Shown: positions 10,336 through 32,188 of the stretch, piece by piece
How the letters are laid out: each line of letters starts with the position of its first letter
Numbering within the stretch: position 1 is the first letter of the stretch
Source: a virus
Taxonomy: Duplodnaviria > Heunggongvirae > Uroviricota > Caudoviricetes
IMG/VR virus record: IMGVR_UViG_3300039208_000529
Span: 48,443-112,442 of that record
Strand: one strand, 5' to 3'
Length of the DNA: 64,000 bases
Notes under the pieces: model-generated
Database searches by the model: none
What the model saw: the letters and a program-made list of their open reading frames with translations, nothing else
What the model was told of the DNA's origin: nothing
Translations under genes and position numbers: made by a program

Positions 10336-10797
10336 ATGGTGACAGCAGAATTTGAACATGATGGCGACGTAGGTATACTTACGGTCGTTACCCATTTTGG
10401 GACAACCCATAAGATTGATTGCAAAAAGCAACCTACGGAAACTTTTCGTTTAGGTGGCACGGCGGTAAATGAAGTGATTGCTTATGAAGGGGTAGTGACC
10501 GATGTTGTGAACGCTTCATTTAAAGCTTTTATAACTTCTGAAAAGACTTTTGCTGGTAATGGAGTATTATCTCCTGAAGGTTGGAAAAACTCCCCTGAGC
10601 TGCATTGTTATGTTACAGAATATTATCCTTTGGATATGGAGGGTAAACGTCCTGGCTGGCTGGTTAGTCGGATGCCAATTAAAGATGCGAATCGTATTTT
10701 TATAAATTTGGACGCGATTGATGGTGGAGGAAACGTTATTAAAAGATATCGTGTTTCGCCTTTTTTTGGTGACTATATTGTTCTGGAGAATGTTTGA
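10336..10797 (+). CDS. hypothetical protein
   Basis: 153-aa ORF with AGGAG upstream. Confidence 0.65.
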   Translation: MVTAEFEHDGDVGILTVVTHFGTTHKIDCKKQPTETFRLGGTAVNEVIAYEGVVTDVVNASFKAFITSEKTFAGNGVLSPEGWKNSPELHCYVTEYYPLDMEGKRPGWLVSRMPIKDANRIFINLDAIDGGGNVIKRYRVSPFFGDYIVLENV

Positions 10798-13700
10798 TGG
10801 CGTTTCCTATTGATGATTATGCACTTATTGGATTTTGGCCGTTAAACGAATCGAGCGGTACGCCAGTTTTTCGTAATTATGCTCCACGAACAGCAAACGG
10901 TGCAACAAGTGGTATTTCATTTGATTTACATGTTCATGCTACAAATCCTGCGATTGGTGTTTCTGTAAGACAGCATCAATCTCTGTGGCCGGGAACTGAT
11001 ACTCAATTCAATTTTAATTCTGGTATTTTTCATACAGGATATAGAGTTCAAGGGAACTATAATAAAGCGACAGCTGACATTGGTCCTCATGAAAAGATTT
11101 TGACGGTTGGAGCCGGCGGGCGACGAAGTAAAGAGTTTATGACTACGCCTGCTATTGACGGTAGTGGATGGACGGTTGGTATGTGGGTTCTTCCATTGTC
11201 GAATGGGGATACTACTACATCTACGAACCAACAACATGGTGAAAGACATCCTATTATTTCCAAGGGGTTACGGTCTAGCACAGGTTCTACATCTGCCGGC
11301 TTTTCTTTTGGTGTGTATGGGAATTTAAGCGAATCGACTCCAAATACTCCAGCATCCAGAGAGCTTGTAGCTTTTGGTGAAGATTTTGGTGCGACACAGT
11401 TTATTAGTACGCCGATTGAATCAGGAAAGTTTACGCATCTTACGTTAAGATATGAATATGACTTCTCTGCTAGCAATGAAAGATTGACATTATATAAAGA
11501 TGGAATCGTTCAGTCTAGCAGTGTATATGCAGTAAGTGATGCATTTACTCTTACGGCTGCGAATACATCTTTTGCTGATGCGGTATTGTCTATTGGTGGT
11601 GGACTAGATACAGGAACTAGTACGAATTTTTACGAATATGCTGCCGGTTGGGGACATCTTGTTTCTGGTGTTTACGCTTTCGAAAGACCTCTAAGCGATG
11701 CTGAAGTTTTGACTATACATGGTGGTCAAGGTCTTCAGCCTGATGAAGGCGTGTTCCCGAAAGGAACGCAAGATCTTACTCTTCAACATCCAGAACTAAT
11801 TGCATATTATCCATTCTTGTCTCCTGGATATGTTGATGTTGGTCCGAATCATGAGCCGTTGATTTCAGAAACTGATGAAGGATCTGTCAACAGTACGTTT
11901 GGGACAACGATTTCTTACTATGGAATTACTGGTCCATTTGGACGTGGTGGTGCTTATAATGAAGCTGGAACTTCCAGGGCCATCATGGCTAGCAGTGGAT
12001 TAATGCAACGAATTATTGATGCCAAGAGTTTTACTGTCGCTGGATATTTTGCACCGAATGCTGATTCTTCTACTGCGGACGTAAATTATCAAAGAAATAT
12101 GTTGTTTGCTTGTGGAGCGACAGACTCTGATGTAACGCCAACTCCAACAAATGACAATATGTGTTTCTTTGTGAGTACCAGTGGCGATGCGGGTACTCTT
12201 AGATATTCTGCACGTTTCTATGAAGATGGTGATACTGGAACAGAATTAGCACTCCTTGCGAAGGAAGCTGATATATGGCGTAGTGTTTATAGTCACTATG
12301 CTGTTGTTTATGACGATCAGACTCGCGGCGTTGCTTTTTATGTTGGTGGCTATCTACAGGAGAGCGGAACGCTAGGTGCTTCCTTGGTTGGTCAAATGAG
12401 AAAAGTTGTTGGTGCTGGCTTTAACATGACATTCTTGGGGTCTGTAGATAATACTGATGCTCAGGGCTTTGTATCCAATGGCGGAATTGATTGTGCAGGA
12501 TCTGAGTTTGCCATTTTTGGTCGTCCGTTACAACCACATGAAATCAACTATTTAGCTCAAAGCGGTATTAATGTCGACTCTCTATTGCTTACTCCTGCGG
12601 ATCCAAGACTTAGAGGTTATTGGAAGGGAACAGAAGCTAGCGATGAGAATCTTTTGAACGTGGAAGATAGAGCTGTTGTTTGGGAAAAGAATCCTGCGAA
12701 CTTGACACAGGTTCAATCTGATTTTTGGTGGGATGATATGTATACTCAAATTAATACAACTCCACCTTATGGAGAATTCCCACTATTTAATCAAGTAAGA
12801 CCAACACCATCTGATCCTCAGCAAGCAAGTTTTGGAAATCTTGGAATGACATCTGGTGTTTGGGCAATGCGTGGTGGGTCTCCAGGCAATATGGGTCTTA
12901 CTGCTGCTATTGTAGATGAAAAATTGTCTTCTTATGGTGCTCCTCCTGTGAGATTTAGACCGTTTATGTCTGAGCGTGATGGACCAATTCCTCATTATGC
13001 CAACAGCTTCTTGTTATCTTTCGAAGTAACTCCAAGCGGTGTTATTCATGCTCAAGGTGTTGCAGGAAACTCTGCACAATATAATTCTAGGATAATTTAT
13101 TTTGGAAATGGTAATGCTAATGAAGATTACATTGTGCACTTAGAGCAAGCTTCTGGTGTTATTCAGGCGGTTCTTACTGGACGCTACAATGCAACAAATA
13201 GACAAGTATTGTTTGCACCAAATTTGCCTTATGGTGCTCCTAGTAGAGTAACTTTTTGGATTCGTCCAGATATCCCATACGTTATGGATAGCTTGGCCGG
13301 AGCGGATGATCTTCGTGCAACAGCCTTTATTGATGGTGTGCATGTTGACGAGAGAGTCTTAACTTTCGATAATACTAGAATTAGTCCAAATACTTTAGTT
13401 AGTGCAAGCTCAGATGATTCTAGAGCTATTTTTCAGGTTGGTGGATTTGCGGTAGAAGATACATTCTCTACTCAGCAGTCAACCAATGTTGGATTAGGCG
13501 AGATATACATGCGTAATGTTTTCATTATGAATGGTCATATAACACCTAATGAAGTAGTGCATTTAGCTACTAGTGGAATTACAGACTCTGTTCCAACAGG
13601 CTTTAATACGACACAGGATACTACGGAAGTTAACATCAACGACACAGCGTTGGAGGGTTACTATAGATTTACTGGTGGAGTATTTGGTAGAGGAACAAAG

Positions 13701-13832
13701 GATCTTAGTAACAATTCAAACGATCTAACCGACATTGCTAAGATCTATAAAGATGGTGGAAATTTTGTCAGTCCAACAGACAATGCTTTTGATAATTTAA
13801 GATTCTTCCCGGGCCCATTTAAAAATGGCTAA
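10797..13832 (+). CDS. multi-LamG (concanavalin A-like jelly-roll) adhesin/tail fibre protein, part 1
   Basis: Repeated LamG starts (LIGFWPLNE, LIAYYPF, LRGYWKG, LEGYYRF) with WTVGMWV, FTHLTLRY, LYKDG and FERPLSDAEV-type cores; GGAG precedes ATG 10797. Confidence 0.75.
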   Translation: MAFPIDDYALIGFWPLNESSGTPVFRNYAPRTANGATSGISFDLHVHATNPAIGVSVRQHQSLWPGTDTQFNFNSGIFHTGYRVQGNYNKATADIGPHEKILTVGAGGRRSKEFMTTPAIDGSGWTVGMWVLPLSNGDTTTSTNQQHGERHPIISKGLRSSTGSTSAGFSFGVYGNLSESTPNTPASRELVAFGEDFGATQFISTPIESGKFTHLTLRYEYDFSASNERLTLYKDGIVQSSSVYAVSDAFTLTAANTSFADAVLSIGGGLDTGTSTNFYEYAAGWGHLVSGVYAFERPLSDAEVLTIHGGQGLQPDEGVFPKGTQDLTLQHPELIAYYPFLSPGYVDVGPNHEPLISETDEGSVNSTFGTTISYYGITGPFGRGGAYNEAGTSRAIMASSGLMQRIIDAKSFTVAGYFAPNADSSTADVNYQRNMLFACGATDSDVTPTPTNDNMCFFVSTSGDAGTLRYSARFYEDGDTGTELALLAKEADIWRSVYSHYAVVYDDQTRGVAFYVGGYLQESGTLGASLVGQMRKVVGAGFNMTFLGSVDNTDAQGFVSNGGIDCAGSEFAIFGRPLQPHEINYLAQSGINVDSLLLTPADPRLRGYWKGTEASDENLLNVEDRAVVWEKNPANLTQVQSDFWWDDMYTQINTTPPYGEFPLFNQVRPTPSDPQQASFGNLGMTSGVWAMRGGSPGNMGLTAAIVDEKLSSYGAPPVRFRPFMSERDGPIPHYANSFLLSFEVTPSGVIHAQGVAGNSAQYNSRIIYFGNGNANEDYIVHLEQASGVIQAVLTGRYNATNRQVLFAPNLPYGAPSRVTFWIRPDIPYVMDSLAGADDLRATAFIDGVHVDERVLTFDNTRISPNTLVSASSDDSRAIFQVGGFAVEDTFSTQQSTNVGLGEIYMRNVFIMNGHITPNEVVHLATSGITDSVPTGFNTTQDTTEVNINDTALEGYYRFTGGVFGRGTKDLSNNSNDLTDIAKIYKDGGNFVSPTDNAFDNLRFFPGPFKNG

Positions 13833-15570
13833 TATTTCAACACAAGCTAGTGGTATTTCCTATATTGGAAATGCTCCAGCCGGCGACACCAGTACTTCTG
13901 CACCATTTGCAGTGTCTGGTGCGGGTTTTAATACGCCTAGAGATGGTTTTTCTGTTGGTTTCTGGTATGCACAAAGATTTGTTCCGGCTGCATTAAATGA
14001 TAGTGCTCTTATCATTAGCTATGGCAAAGTTCCGGGAGCATTTAATCTCAATACTGACGTTAATGCTGGTTGGGCCATTTATCTAGACGATAATTCTAAT
14101 ATTAAAATGGGGCTGTCTATTGATGGCACGTTGAATTTAGAGCCGGATAGTGTTGCCAGTGCAGGGAACGTTAGATGTGGTCTTGAACGGAATGCGGTTG
14201 ATGCGAATCCCGACTTTATTGACAATTTTACAAGAGGGATGACGCTCCCGGGTCATATCGATGGATGGAATCATTTTACATGGACATATGATCCTTCTGG
14301 ATCCGGCGTAGTAAAGTGTTATTTCAATGGCGGTTTAGTGGACCAGCGAGATATGCTGGGACAAAAACCAAATCAACCTGATTTCCATGGCCAAATGATG
14401 AGCGTTTTTGGTGGTTTAGTAGGAGATTGGGACTGGACTGACGATGACATTTTTGATGAACATGGTGCTCTTACAGATCTTTTCTACTTTTCGAGAGCAT
14501 TAAATGAAAAAGAAGTAAAGTACATTGCTTATCACGGCATTGCTGATGCTCCTGCGATTCCAATAGCCAGTGGATTAGTAGGTGGATATATTGCGGGACA
14601 AGATACTGCGTCAGGAATTATAGGCGGATATATTCAAGGTCAAACTGATGTATCCGGTATTGTTGGCGGGTATATCGTTGGCTCCATTGCAAGCAGTGGA
14701 TTATTAGGTGGTTATATTTCTGGAATTAACTCACCAATGTCGGGTATTATTGGTGGATATATTGTTGGTTCAACTGCCTCATCTGGACTTCTTGGAGGAC
14801 TGTTATTAGGTGCTGACATAGGTAGCGGTCTTCTTGGTGGATATATCTTGGGAGGTCTTTCTGGTAATCTTGAGTTTGACGCGGTGTTTAGTGTTTCGGT
14901 TATGGCTGCTCAAGATTATGATGCTATCACTCAAATATCACAAACTATTAATGATGATTTTGATGCCAAGGTAGTTGTGTTTGAAGATGAGTGTTTGCCA
15001 TTAGTTGCAATTGAAACTCCATCAGAATCGGTTAGTGGCTTGGCTCCACCGTTTGATCAATATTTTGTTGGTAAAGCTTCTGGATTACAAAATAAAACTA
15101 TTACTAAAACTAGATGGCGTTTTGGCGATTTTACTCCGCCCGTTGAAGTTTCTGAAAGTGGTGCCGGTTGTTATCCGGTAAGTCATACGTTTGCTCAAAG
15201 TGGTTTCTTTATTGTTAAATTTGAGGCTATTGATTCTGATGGAGTACATGCTTCCGCAACCAGAATCGTTAATGCCGCTTCTGGTATTGATCCAGTCCTT
15301 ATTGCACTATCTGGGATTCCTCAGGCTGGAAATGCTGCATTAGTTGTAGATTTTACAACAACTATTGCGAGCACACCTATTGGAGTGAGTGTACTAAATA
15401 AATTGCTGGATTTTGATGATGGACAGACTACTATCAGTTTAAATCCAACACATTCGTATACGGAACTAGGTGTTTATAATCCTATCTGGTGTGTCCGAGA
15501 CTCTCGTGGCGTTGTTTGGTGCGATAGTTTACAGCCAGGACTTGATCTGTTCACATCAGGAGGGGGCTAG
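13825..15570 (+). CDS. LamG core + Gly-rich repeats + two PKD-like domains, part 2
   Basis: FSVGFW, WNHFTWTYD, CYFNG, LTDLFYFSRALNEKEV; PKD-like WRFGD...SHTFAQSG and LDFDDG...NPTHSYTELGVY. Confidence 0.75.
   Translation: MANISTQASGISYIGNAPAGDTSTSAPFAVSGAGFNTPRDGFSVGFWYAQRFVPAALNDSALIISYGKVPGAFNLNTDVNAGWAIYLDDNSNIKMGLSIDGTLNLEPDSVASAGNVRCGLERNAVDANPDFIDNFTRGMTLPGHIDGWNHFTWTYDPSGSGVVKCYFNGGLVDQRDMLGQKPNQPDFHGQMMSVFGGLVGDWDWTDDDIFDEHGALTDLFYFSRALNEKEVKYIAYHGIADAPAIPIASGLVGGYIAGQDTASGIIGGYIQGQTDVSGIVGGYIVGSIASSGLLGGYISGINSPMSGIIGGYIVGSTASSGLLGGLLLGADIGSGLLGGYILGGLSGNLEFDAVFSVSVMAAQDYDAITQISQTINDDFDAKVVVFEDECLPLVAIETPSESVSGLAPPFDQYFVGKASGLQNKTITKTRWRFGDFTPPVEVSESGAGCYPVSHTFAQSGFFIVKFEAIDSDGVHASATRIVNAASGIDPVLIALSGIPQAGNAALVVDFTTTIASTPIGVSVLNKLLDFDDGQTTISLNPTHSYTELGVYNPIWCVRDSRGVVWCDSLQPGLDLFTSGGG
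14569..14865 (+). repeat. about 7 degenerate 14-aa (42-nt) coding repeats SG[LI][VIL]GGY[I]xG
   Basis: SGLVGGYIAG, SGIIGGYIQG, SGIVGGYIVG, SGLLGGYISG, SGIIGGYIVG, SGLLGGLLLG, SGLLGGYILG. Confidence 0.9.
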
Positions 15571-23803: not shown

Positions 23804-24197
23804 TAGAGATGTTCGTATTGAAATTATTCCTAGTAGATATCCTATGCGTTCACGCAGTAATTCTAGATCATACGGACAATATAATCTAGGTAAACAAATT
23901 AGGTCGTTATATGGACAGGGTGCACAAATCTTAGAGGAGTTTCCTATACCGGAGACTAGATTATCGTTAGATTTTTTTATGCCCAATCATGCTCTTGCTT
24001 TTGAATTTCAAGGGTTACAGCACGATGAGTTCAATTCTCACTTTCATGTTGACAAGGATGGCTTTGAGCGTCAAAAGATAAGAGACCAAAGGAAACGTGA
24101 ATGGTGTGAGATTAATGACATCATCTTAGTTGAGGTTCGAGATCCCAATATATCTGTTGGTGATCTTATGGAGTTAGTACAGGAGTTCCGTGGCTAA
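23778..24197 (+). CDS. DUF559/Vsr-like PD-(D/E)XK-type endonuclease
   Basis: LSLDFFMP...AFEFQGLQH...QKIRDQRKREWCEINDIILVEV. Confidence 0.65.
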   Translation: MMKFRTLNNRDVRIEIIPSRYPMRSRSNSRSYGQYNLGKQIRSLYGQGAQILEEFPIPETRLSLDFFMPNHALAFEFQGLQHDEFNSHFHVDKDGFERQKIRDQRKREWCEINDIILVEVRDPNISVGDLMELVQEFRG

Positions 24198-28287: not shown

Positions 28288-28910
28288 TGGCGGTATACAA
28301 ATTTTGGTGTAATAAAGAAGGACATATTTTTGAAACTAAAATACCTAAAAACAGATATGAATCATTTATTCGTAAATGTGAGTCACTTAAAAAAGTTTGT
28401 CCAAAATGTAAGCCAGAGAACGTAAGAATTTTTCCTCTGGAGGATTCTGACGGATGTAAAATATATAGGTGTCCGAAAAATCATGTGAATACGATGTGTT
28501 TGTTTAAAGATGGTATGGTTCATGTGTCGTGCAATAATGTCTTTACTAACTTTTTGGAAACAAAGGGAGATAACGCCGAGCAGCTCGTTGTCGAACTAGT
28601 TGACGATGGAACGATTTGTTGTCAGTATGAAGGTGAGTGTGGATTACCTCTTGTGGCTATAGATGACACTCAGTTCGTTAGGCCAAATGTTTCGTTTATT
28701 AAAACCAGAGTTAGAGTTGGAGACATTTGGGATAAAGCTGGGGTAGCAGATCCTGTTGCTGGTAGTTATGATGGTGATTTTTATTATAAAGAAAGCGAGT
28801 TTGAAAAGAGAAACAAAGAGCGTTTGAGTAGAATGAGGCGTGAACGCAACATCTCAAAAGATAGGCTTCCTGGAAAACCGTTGAACGAACCGACCAATCC
28901 TGACGAATGA
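28287..28910 (+). CDS. Cys-rich putative zinc-binding protein
   Basis: CNKEGH, CPKC, CPKNH and CQYEGEC clusters. Confidence 0.6.
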   Translation: MAVYKFWCNKEGHIFETKIPKNRYESFIRKCESLKKVCPKCKPENVRIFPLEDSDGCKIYRCPKNHVNTMCLFKDGMVHVSCNNVFTNFLETKGDNAEQLVVELVDDGTICCQYEGECGLPLVAIDDTQFVRPNVSFIKTRVRVGDIWDKAGVADPVAGSYDGDFYYKESEFEKRNKERLSRMRRERNISKDRLPGKPLNEPTNPDE

Positions 28911-31900
28911 CTTTTATACATCTAAGCGTACATTCTAAAGCGTCAATGCTTTATGGATCTGCTGATATTAAGAAGCTTGTTAAAAAGGCAAAAGAATGTA
29001 ATCAGCAGGCGATTGCTTTGACTGACTATAGTAATCTTTTTAATGCTGTCAATTTCTACAAAGAGGCAACTCATGTAGGTATTAAACCAATTTTAGGTGT
29101 CGATGTTTTGTTCTGCGAAGATTGTGACGAGTACAAAGAACAAAAGATCAGACAAACTAATCATTTGGTACTTCTGGCAGAAAATGATATTGGATGGAAA
29201 AATATTACGCGAATAGTGGCGGAATCAAATACTGGCGACAATTTCTATTTTAGTCCTAGAATTGATTTTAAGATCTTAGAGAAATATTCTGATGGTATTA
29301 TAGCTCTAGCTGGCGGTACGTTTGATGGCGTCATTTCATACTATCTTTATGACAAAAAGGGTGATGATGGTTCGATTAGAGACAGTGCTGCTCCGTTCAA
29401 AGCACAAGCGTTAGTTCGTAGATTCATTAAGATTTTTGGGACCGATCGGTTCTTTCTAGAAGTTCAAGATCATGGCCATGATATCCAGCGTGAAGTTAAC
29501 AATAAACTTAGAAACATTGCTATCAAATATGGCATAAAAACAGTTGCTACCAATAATGTTCATTATGTGGATAAGAGCGACGCTGAAGCTCATAAAACTT
29601 TGCTGTCTATGAATGTTGATAGATACAACAGAACTACAAGTACAGACTTTTCGCGTGAAGAATATTATCTTAAATCGAGAGAAGAAATGTGCTTACATGA
29701 CAGCGAGATCGCTACAGCTGTTGAAATTGGTGAGCGATGCAATGTATTAATTGATGTTGCTAAACGTCGGCTTCCTAAGTATGCTTTCTTGCCAGAGGGC
29801 GAGACCGCAGATGGTTACCTGCGTAAACTGGTGATGGATGGTTTAGCATATATTATTCAAGGAAAGAAAAATGCCGATGATTATATGGCTAGAGTTGAAC
29901 GTGAATTGTCGGACATTCATGAAATGGGATTCGACGATTACTTCTTGATTGTTCATGATGTTATTTCTTGGTGCCAAAAAGAAAAGATGTTGATTGGCCG
30001 AGGTCGAGGTAGTGCTGGAGGTAGTTTGGTTAGTTATTGTCTCGGCATTACGGACATTGATCCTCTTAAATATGGTTTAATTTGGGAACGCTTCCTAAAC
30101 AAAGGCAGAGGAGGATTACCTGATATTGATAGCGACGTTCCTCAGTCAAAACGCAAAGCTGTAATTGATTATATCAAAAGTCGTTTTGGGGCAAATAACG
30201 TTGCTCAGATTGTTAACTACAATGCCATGAAAGCCAAAGGTATTCTAAAAGAAGTTTTTAGAGTTTATGGTATGGAGTTTGAGGAAGCAAATAGGATTAC
30301 TGCACTTATTCCAAATAAGAACGAAGACCATGTAGACATAAGTCTTGATGAAGCCTTGGCTACCGTCCCCGCATTGAGAGAATATGAGAAAAAGTATAAA
30401 GCATGGTTTTCTATAGCTAGATCATTAGAGGGATGCTACAAGGCTACAGGTATTCATGCGGCCGGTATTGTTATTTCAGATACTCCGTTTGAAGAGAGTA
30501 GTTATCCTTTGGCAAGAGCTAAAGATGGTACGCTAATCTTCGGTTGGGATATGCAAACTGTAGATACTTTAAGTCTTTTGAAACTTGATATTCTTGGTCT
30601 TACCACTCTTGACGATGTACAAACGACATTTGATCTAGTGAAAAACAGGCGAGGTTTGGATGTTACTAGACAAAGTATTCCTCTGAATGATTCTTCAACC
30701 TATGCTATGATTGGAGCCGGCTTTACAGTTGGAGTATTTCAGATTGAGAAACAGCTTGGGCAGGTTTGGAGTAAAAACCTAGAGCCATCTAATATTGAAG
30801 AGATTAGTGATCTTTGTAGTATAATTCGTCCAGGACCATTAGACTCTGGTATGGCAGAGCAATATCAGGAAGTTAAAGCTGGAAGAACTGATCCGGATTA
30901 TATTCATAACAAACTAGAGCCTATATTAAGTAAGACTTACTCTGGTTGCTTATATCAAGAGCAGGTAATTGAAATTTGTCGGCAGCTTTCTGGAATGTCG
31001 TCGATTGATGCTGATAAAGTTCGCAAGGCCATGGGCAAGAAAAAGCCAGAAGAGATGGCTAAATGGAAAAAAATATTTATAGATGGTTGTTACAATTACT
31101 CTAACATTGATATTATAACAGCGGAACAGATTTGGAGCTTTATTGAAACCTTCGCAGGATATGGATTTAATAAATCTCATGGTGTAGGATATGGTCTTTT
31201 AACATATGAGACCGCTTACCTAAAAACAAACTATACTGTAGAATTTTTATGTGCAAAGCTACGTCATACTGATGGTGACTTTGATAAAATTAGTGCACTT
31301 GTTTATGATGGCAAGCTCTTTAATATAAACGTGGTTCCGCCAAGTGTTAAAAATGGTAACAGTAATTTTGCAATTATAGATGACAACAACATTGCTTTTG
31401 GATTGACTTCAGTTAAGGGCGTGGGAATTGCAGCTATTACAGACATCAAGACTGTTGCAAATAACGTAAGTAATTTTGATGACATATTGTGGAAGATAAA
31501 ACTAACTAAGAATAAGATTACTAGTGCGGTTGTTGCAGCACTCATTAAAAGTGGAGCCTTTGATTCTTATGGTGAGCCTCGTGTCAGAATGTTGGCAAAA
31601 CATAATTTGATGGAAGGATTAAGCAAGACGGAATTGAAGAATATTGACTCCCTTATGAAGAGAGAGCCAGATATCAAAGATTGGGTTCGTTTTGTAAGAG
31701 GTCTATCTGATGACAGCAAAACTGATATTATTAAGAACAAGTATGGAATACGTGTTCCAGACGCTCGCCGTCGTCCAAAGTTACAAGAGCTGTTAAGAGA
31801 ATATGATGCAGCCGATTTGTTTGATGGGAAGATACAGAATATTGGTTGGGAAAAACAATACTTAGGAATATCTCTGAGCGGCAATGAAGCTGAAATGTTT

Positions 31901-32188
31901 AATGCTAGGAATAAGTGTGCAGAGCTGATGAGAAGCGGTGAGCCAAACGATGGATTTGAAATCGCGGTGTGTGTAGATTCAGCTAGAGAACATATTTGTG
32001 GTAACGGAAAAACTATGGCTTTTGTTTCTGCGAGGGACGATACTTATGCCATGAACAATATTGTTGTTTTTCCTCAACAGTTTGAAAAATTTCATGATCT
32101 TTTAATAGAAGGAAATATTCTAAAAATTAGTGGTAAGATTAGCGACAGACGTTCTCTTGTAGCTAATAAAATTAAGAGGCTAAGATGA
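28907..32188 (+). CDS. dnaE: DNA polymerase III alpha subunit (C family)
   Basis: PHP domain, GRGRGSAGGSLV, WERFLN...LPDIDSD, LLKLDILGL, GYGFNKSH, C-terminal OB fold; no intein. Confidence 0.96.
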   Translation: MTFIHLSVHSKASMLYGSADIKKLVKKAKECNQQAIALTDYSNLFNAVNFYKEATHVGIKPILGVDVLFCEDCDEYKEQKIRQTNHLVLLAENDIGWKNITRIVAESNTGDNFYFSPRIDFKILEKYSDGIIALAGGTFDGVISYYLYDKKGDDGSIRDSAAPFKAQALVRRFIKIFGTDRFFLEVQDHGHDIQREVNNKLRNIAIKYGIKTVATNNVHYVDKSDAEAHKTLLSMNVDRYNRTTSTDFSREEYYLKSREEMCLHDSEIATAVEIGERCNVLIDVAKRRLPKYAFLPEGETADGYLRKLVMDGLAYIIQGKKNADDYMARVERELSDIHEMGFDDYFLIVHDVISWCQKEKMLIGRGRGSAGGSLVSYCLGITDIDPLKYGLIWERFLNKGRGGLPDIDSDVPQSKRKAVIDYIKSRFGANNVAQIVNYNAMKAKGILKEVFRVYGMEFEEANRITALIPNKNEDHVDISLDEALATVPALREYEKKYKAWFSIARSLEGCYKATGIHAAGIVISDTPFEESSYPLARAKDGTLIFGWDMQTVDTLSLLKLDILGLTTLDDVQTTFDLVKNRRGLDVTRQSIPLNDSSTYAMIGAGFTVGVFQIEKQLGQVWSKNLEPSNIEEISDLCSIIRPGPLDSGMAEQYQEVKAGRTDPDYIHNKLEPILSKTYSGCLYQEQVIEICRQLSGMSSIDADKVRKAMGKKKPEEMAKWKKIFIDGCYNYSNIDIITAEQIWSFIETFAGYGFNKSHGVGYGLLTYETAYLKTNYTVEFLCAKLRHTDGDFDKISALVYDGKLFNINVVPPSVKNGNSNFAIIDDNNIAFGLTSVKGVGIAAITDIKTVANNVSNFDDILWKIKLTKNKITSAVVAALIKSGAFDSYGEPRVRMLAKHNLMEGLSKTELKNIDSLMKREPDIKDWVRFVRGLSDDSKTDIIKNKYGIRVPDARRRPKLQELLREYDAADLFDGKIQNIGWEKQYLGISLSGNEAEMFNARNKCAELMRSGEPNDGFEIAVCVDSAREHICGNGKTMAFVSARDDTYAMNNIVVFPQQFEKFHDLLIEGNILKISGKISDRRSLVANKIKRLR

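Follow-up and report, generated by a model that had tools for sequence, protein, structure and literature searches.

A conserved one-base gene fission inside a lectin-like domain of a phage tail protein, most likely expressed as two coupled chains

Organization of the locus

In this study, we analyzed a stretch of 64,000 nucleotides (nt; hereafter the window) from IMG/VR record IMGVR_UViG_3300039208_000529, a tailed phage of the class Caudoviricetes, and focused on two adjoining open reading frames (ORFs) that together encode a large tail protein. The window is part of a 177,556-nt viral contig from a metagenome assembly. ORF1 (10797..13832, + strand) encodes 1011 amino acids (aa), comprising three complete ConA/LamG-like beta-sandwich units and the first ~60 residues of a fourth. 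Its start is ATG 10797, as in the database protein P0003 (1011 aa); the ORF listing extends to TTG 10794. ORF2 (13825..15570, + strand) encodes 581 aa and contains the remainder of unit 4, followed by Gly-rich repeats and a pair of PKD domains. The two genes overlap by 8 nt, ATGGCTAA (13825..13832, + strand), formed of the ORF2 ATG (13825-13827), which lies in the +1 frame relative to ORF1, and the ORF1 stop TAA (13830-13832).

An earlier note on this DNA had proposed that the fourth LamG domain is divided between the two ORFs by one nucleotide. Homologue alignment, repeat register and structural models all agree with this proposal. The codon spacing given there (CCC GGG CCC A TTT) is not that of ORF1, which reads CCG GGC CCA TTT AAA AAT GGC TAA (P G P F K N G stop) at 13809-13832, but the main point is unaffected. 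ORF1 thus ends with the peptide FFPGPFKNG, and ORF2 begins with (M)ANISTQASGISY. The +1 frame is closed by TAA 13798-13800 and open from 13801, so any frame change is confined to 13801-13829. The sole stretch in which frames 0 and +1 are both open (13801..13832, + strand) contains TTT AAA AAT; the ancestral 1-nt insertion occurred here, and a +1 slip, if there is one, would have to occur here too. With a frame change at TTT or AAA, the product would have the junction GPFK-MANIST and a length of 1590 aa, in agreement with the ~1,590 aa given earlier.

The split lies inside a folded domain

The domain can be assigned to both ORFs because homologues align continuously across the junction, the repeat register and the hhalign comparison agree, a model of the intact unit is a single jelly-roll, and the ORF1 tail is unstructured by itself. 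In the repeat register, units start at ORF1 residues 11, 335, 606 and 953 and end near ORF1 residues 310, 588 and 925 and at ORF2 residue 235. When the head of ORF2 was compared with ORF1 residues 394-596 by hhalign, the match had a probability of 97% (E 7e-11). The orphan N-terminal segment of unit 4 (13650..13829, + strand; LEGYYRF ... RFFPGPFKNG) contributes two strands to the jelly-roll, the first one and RFFP. Residues 1-245 of ORF2 (13825..14559, + strand; FSVGFW ... DLFYFSR ... YHGI) make up the C-terminal ~80% of the unit, as judged by Pfam, hhalign and the complex model described below.

The Pfam search of ORF1 gave no match. In ORF2, residues 136-232 matched Laminin_G_3 (PF13385) with 26.1 bits, below the cut-off of 27.6 (E 1.1e-5), and the match covers only profile positions 71-151, the C-terminal half of the domain. 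The fused homologues P0005 and P0048 scored 28.7 and 29.3 bits against the same profile, slightly over the cut-off. Downstream of unit 4, ORF2 carries seven 14-aa repeats of the SG[ILV][ILV]GG type (SG-x-x-GG; 14569..14865, + strand), found by repeat analysis, and two PKD domains (residues 424-482 and 497-565; 15094..15519, + strand). Both of the latter are above their gathering scores in Pfam (PKD_4, PF18911, 48.7 bits with a cut-off of 27; PKD, PF00801, 28.3 bits with a cut-off of 23.5), and the Gly repeats and two PKD domains described earlier are therefore correct.

The structure of the intact unit was predicted with AlphaFold2 (AF2) from the closest fused homologue (P0005:925-1247). The model is one compact jelly-roll, with a predicted local distance difference test score (pLDDT) of 82.6 and a predicted template modeling score (pTM) of 0.86. 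The junction maps between its strands 65-68 and 81-84, in a loop with a pLDDT of ~61. Its top Foldseek matches are lectin-like jelly-roll subdomains (E ~1e-10, TM ~0.5, 14% identity), which suggests a likeness at the level of the fold only. When ORF1 was modeled alone (pLDDT 79.5), three sandwich domains were obtained, and the tail (residues 940-1012) had no strands and a pLDDT of 30-70. Taken together, the split lies inside the fourth ConA/LamG-like unit, in an inter-strand loop.

Homologues with a single reading frame

Placed end to end, ORF1 and ORF2 are colinear with about 48 database proteins (1545-1712 aa), whose identity is 32-39% to ORF1 and 41-50% to ORF2. The last residues of ORF1 and the first of ORF2 align to adjacent homologue residues, with no gap, overlap or indel. 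All of the 17 IMG/VR loci examined, which were fetched by the ORF2 head, are likewise fused; the frame continues through the junction without a stop, reaching at least 500 codons upstream (the whole 1500-nt flank fetched) and 590-656 codons downstream. A single gene is the rule in about 65 related phages. The question raised by the earlier note, whether homologues are fused or split at the same site, therefore has a twofold answer: these proteins and loci are fused, and two relatives, L004 and L002, are split as in the window.

At the junction, the fused homologues read PGP-x-x-N/D and then S/A-D/S-L, for example F-T-N-A-S-L-N-T in P0021, and the fused relative L013 has TTT AAA GAT AGT. These orthologues (P0005, P0021 and loci L006-L022) are tail proteins of ~1550-1700 aa from uncultured phages of ~150-180 kb. 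Their domain order is that of the window (four ConA/LamG-like units, then Gly-rich repeats and a pair of PKD domains), and where the neighbourhood is seen (L003 and L005), the upstream gene order also matches, including an FkbM methyltransferase gene. The difference is that theirs is one reading frame, whereas in the window an extra base cuts unit 4 into two genes. No match was found when the region and both proteins were compared by blastn and tblastn with 50,697 cultured or deposited phage records, and PHROGs has a family for neither ORF1 nor ORF2. At the level of sequence similarity, cultured phages have no detectable homologue of either ORF.

Several other candidates for a split were rejected. 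P0065 starts at the first residue of ORF2, but its contig (L023) is open upstream, and the gene is fused. P0028 (1029 aa) stops ~9 nt before the end of its contig and is otherwise colinear with a fused homologue, a contig-end effect. Between P0050 and P0059 on L005 there are two frame changes, ~230 nt apart and elsewhere in the gene; they reflect an error or a pseudogene, not the event seen in the window. This broken homologue (L005:3261-8196; NCBI GCA_900163725.1, FUIF01017991.1) runs through frames 3, 2 and 1 and is probably an assembly error or pseudogene. The tail module of the same contig also contains a 299-aa gene (L005:725-1624) with AP2 and faint LAGLIDADG matches. It resembles a homing endonuclease gene and sits between genes that are syntenic with the window.

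Inheritance and selection of the split

The junction was recovered in two separate Logan assemblies, L024 (SRR4039776) and L025 (SRR4039775), which match the window with 100% identity across 3256 and 2773 nt, respectively. In addition, the same split is present in two diverged relatives. L004 (81% aa identity) reads TTT AAA GAT GGC TAA with the 8-nt overlap ATGGCTAA, and L002 (65-67% aa identity; a Joint Genome Institute (JGI) sample) reads TTT AAA GAT GAA TAA with the 8-nt overlap ATGAATAA. All three split sequences retain both the ATG and the TAA, although synonymous differences are present in the Pro and Gly codons that flank the junction. The A run is five long in the window and three (AAAG) in L004 and L002. 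L004 and L025 both derive from SRR4039775; a single sequencing run thus contained the phage of the window and a split relative 81% identical to it.

These data bear on an explanation also raised in the earlier note, that a sequencing or assembly indel in the A5 homopolymer has broken what is really one fused ORF. The contig is indeed a metagenome assembly, the break adjoins the A5 run, and apparent breaks occur in other public homologues: L005 has the two frame changes described above, and L003 runs into the end of its contig. However, the two further assemblies come from separate runs and do not differ from the window, and the relatives at 81% and 65% identity are split alike with AAAG in place of AAAAA. 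Since their A run is only three long, a homopolymer error cannot account for the shared split. With purifying selection on both parts in addition, we regard an indel as ruled out for practical purposes.

Synonymous sites are saturated among the split sequences (proportion of synonymous differences, pS, 0.65-0.75), and the ratio of nonsynonymous to synonymous substitution rates (dN/dS) is 0.06-0.17 for both ORFs. For the orphan ORF1 tail (52-60 codons), dN/dS is 0.10-0.26. The last 60 codons of ORF1, which would serve no purpose with a dead unit 4, show 82% aa identity to L002, compared with 65% for ORF1 overall, and the last 52 codons show ~81% to L004 (71% between L002 and L004). No stop interrupts the 581 codons of ORF2 in the window or in L004, and in L002 the frame remains open until the contig ends. 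When one member of a fused family carries a frameshift, a pseudogene is the usual explanation, and ORF1 alone might be made with ORF2 as a decaying or unexpressed remnant, or the reverse. This is very improbable, given a long and open ORF2, low dN/dS at saturated dS and a conserved ORF1 tail. Because the split is common to three diverged phages and both parts, together with the orphan tail, are constrained, it predates their divergence and the parts are still in use. As far as sequence comparison can tell, the split is real, conserved and intradomain, with both halves under purifying selection.

Further members of this split clade were sought by peptide patterns and by a DNA pattern downstream of the junction in IMG/VR, by peptides and a DNA pattern in JGI metagenome contigs, and among proteins under 319 aa; none was found in these sets.

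Gene fission with probable coupled translation

We consider it probable, though not beyond dispute, that the pair arose by an old one-base gene fission, that ORF2 is translated from its conserved ATG through stop-start coupling, and that the two chains rebuild one jelly-roll. In the ancestor of the small clade formed by the window phage and its two relatives, an extra base would have entered the unit-4 loop of a ~1590-aa tail protein. It was probably a G after an AAT/GAT codon, giving RAT G.. TAA; the insertion would have brought the out-of-frame ATG of RAT-G into the downstream frame and created the TAA three bases later. The loop length of the hypothetical read-through product (F-K-M-A-N-I-S-T) is that of the homologues. 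Ribosomes terminating at the ORF1 stop would then restart at the ORF2 ATG by termination-reinitiation, for which no Shine-Dalgarno (SD) sequence is needed, and such coupling may provide the ORF1 and ORF2 chains in similar amounts.

Co-location of a stop and a start within 10 nt, conserved among homologues, is a mark of translational coupling (Antonov et al. 2013, PMC3711429), and a consensus AT_G at a +1 transition points to gene overlap rather than frameshifting (PMC3711429). In the window, L004 and L002, the ORF2 start overlaps the ORF1 stop by 8 nt. The conserved co-location and the AT_G motif therefore favour termination-reinitiation coupling. The features of a gene fission are also present: the single-ORF orthologues are colinear with the pair, the split is inherited, and both parts are under purifying selection. 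The coupled fission pairs described before (PMC3711429) share with the window an ATG within 10 nt of the stop, the AT_G motif, a weak or absent ribosome-binding site and fused homologues elsewhere. They differ in that they break between domains, whereas the window pair breaks inside one folded domain and its coupling is deduced.

Overlapping junctions are common in this phage. Within the window, ATGNNTAA accounts for 6 of the 53 junctions and ATGA-type 4-nt overlaps for 16. Besides the ORF1/ORF2 overlap, 8-nt (A/G)TGNNTAA junctions occur at 24190, 38579, 43707, 47055 and 59097, mostly without an SD. An SD core is found at 8 of 32 overlapping junctions, compared with about half of the spaced ones. 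As had been observed earlier, no SD precedes ATG 13825, but this is the norm for overlapping junctions; with SDs rare there, the missing SD is uninformative. Judging from these junction counts, coupling seems to be how the window phage usually expresses its genes.

Several points weigh against coupled fission. Separate ORF1 and ORF2 chains are a prediction from the sequence. The split clade has three known members, which are the whole basis for calling ATG, TAA and TTT AAA conserved. Fissions usually fall between domains, and an intradomain break is usually read as a true frameshift (an assumption made in PMC3711429). A +1 slip is conceivable at a Lys AAA codon with A or G after it, and frameshifting and downstream initiation occurred together in some constructs (PMC3711429).

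Possible frameshifting at the junction

The alternative is a programmed +1 frameshift, in which the tRNA-Lys on AAA (13821-13823) re-pairs on AAA/AAG one base downstream. A 1590-aa protein with the sequence ...GPFK-MANIST... would be made beside the 1011-aa ORF1 product, and independent initiation at ORF2 would be optional. We think this unlikely, though not negligible. The three split sequences share an identical TTT AAA R, and Lys AAA is the only codon in the 30 nt open to a slip that re-pairs one base downstream in all of them; the move from AAA to AAA/AAG keeps cognate pairing in the P site. The fused product would exactly match the loop length of the fused homologues. In addition, a break inside a conserved domain and a strongly conserved orphan tail are what continued production of a fused chain would predict, and frameshifting can coexist with coupling (PMC3711429).

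On the other hand, the A site would hold AAT or GAT, which are ordinary rather than slow codons, with the stop two codons on, and a pause of the prfB type is therefore absent. None of the three split sequences has an SD-like stimulator upstream. No conserved RNA structure was found downstream in these three: the predicted folds differ, with z-scores of -3.4, -0.06 and -1.9, the notable value belonging to the window only. The 100 nt after the junction (13824-13923) fold better than shuffled sequences in the window (z -3.4) and not in L004 (z -0.06). The earlier note had placed the slip on the A5 run, which is not conserved; re-pairing on AAA-R keeps a low probability. Even with seven As in a row, shifting reached only about 10% in published tests (PMC3711429), and the run here is five or three. 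TTT AAA GAT is also present in the fused relative L013, where it simply encodes F-K-D. Furthermore, Met replaces the commonest homologue residue (N) in 3/3 split sequences, a change more in keeping with a start codon than with a structural role. Transcriptional slippage was considered and is unlikely for an A run of five in the window and three in the relatives.

The known prfB +1 frameshift uses CUU UGA C with an upstream SD. In Listeria phage PSA, programmed +1 frameshifts reportedly operate in capsid and tail genes. These systems share with the window a +1 change that joins two ORFs of a structural gene and a codon that re-pairs one base downstream. Unlike them, the window lacks an A-site stop or slow codon as well as an SD-like or structural stimulator, and its junction carries a conserved start codon. 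A +1 frameshift of a non-canonical kind at UUU AAA R, unaided by a stop codon, a rare codon or any known stimulator, which would give the clade two forms of the adhesin, is more doubtful still. If it were true, a 1011-aa form ending in an unfolded half-domain would be accompanied by a 1590-aa form bearing the Gly-repeat/PKD tip, and ORF2 might also initiate by itself.

Two chains, one proposed beta-sandwich

Under fission with coupled translation, the two chains would have to restore the fourth unit between them. A complex of the ORF1 tail (residues 940-1012) with the ORF2 head (residues 1-245) was modeled and scored 0.85, with 0.00 for the best control; the mark used for this score is reached by 58 of 80 solved complexes and by 2 of 110 mismatched pairs. 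The runs agreed in at least 77% of contacts, the partner pLDDT was at least 82, and ~200 contacts were formed. The tightest contacts join ORF1 952-958 (LEGYYRF) with ORF2 218-224 (DLFYFSR), and the first and last strands are thus paired in the models, as in a jelly-roll. The chains modeled are halves of one domain and the alignments come from fused homologues; the score consequently shows that the pieces fit as in an intact domain, not that they bind in the cell. The comparison of fusion and heterodimer proposed earlier thus gave one jelly-roll for the fused unit and a high-scoring model for the two chains.

In the proposed mechanism, the ~60-residue tail of ORF1, unfolded when alone, would complete the ORF2 jelly-roll, with the LEGYYRF strand pairing with the last ORF2 strand, DLFYFSR. 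Such a shared sandwich would give the distal module (Gly repeats and two PKD domains) a non-covalent link to the proximal module of the tail appendage, with its three lectin units. From the models, completion of the ORF2 sandwich by the tail would be the simplest mechanism, and the pieces most likely re-join through a shared beta-sandwich rather than by frameshifting. Among the explanations offered in the earlier note, strand complementation between two chains is the best supported, by the position of the break in a loop, the tail that is unfolded alone and the complex score.

Complementation of beta-strands between chains is known from the donor-strand mechanism of chaperone-usher pili and from engineered split beta-sandwich and beta-barrel proteins. 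As in those systems, strands of one chain would complete the beta-sandwich of another. The present case differs in that it would stem from the cutting of a once-continuous domain and is a prediction from models. Overall, ORF1 and ORF2 are the products of a real and conserved fission within one domain of a multi-lectin tail protein, and they are most likely translated as two coupled chains that restore one jelly-roll.

Fission of a gene into a pair with overlapping stop and start is already known, and the instance here is a tidy one. This case shows that a frame break beside a homopolymer and inside a domain of a metagenomic phage gene can be real and kept by selection rather than an error. Because such breaks can be real, annotators should not merge or discard the resulting pairs by default. 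The pair also represents a natural beta-sandwich lectin domain that has been cut in a loop and apparently still works. It offers a simple system in which to ask how fission is tolerated in tail adhesins and how modules could be linked non-covalently, and a clean test case for coupling versus +1 recoding.

Genomic neighbourhood

The ORF1/ORF2 pair is located ~4.8 kb downstream of a gene for a 1708-aa tape measure protein. Its surroundings include genes for large proteins of no known family, for a sulfotransferase and for an FkbM methyltransferase, and the neighbourhood is a distal tail, baseplate or fibre module. The sulfotransferase (PF03567; 7455-8018) and FkbM methyltransferase (PF05050; 8581-9156) genes lie in among the tail structural genes, and the latter is also present in the relative L003. 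The Pfam Phage_sheath_1 profile had no match in the whole 177.6-kb contig, despite the 1708-aa tape measure. The DNA polymerase of the window (1093 aa, phrog_405; 28907-32188) is at most ~35% identical to that of any deposited phage, which indicates a lineage without a close cultured relative. Its nearest matches are in uncultured human faecal contigs and in Pseudomonas phage Y1.

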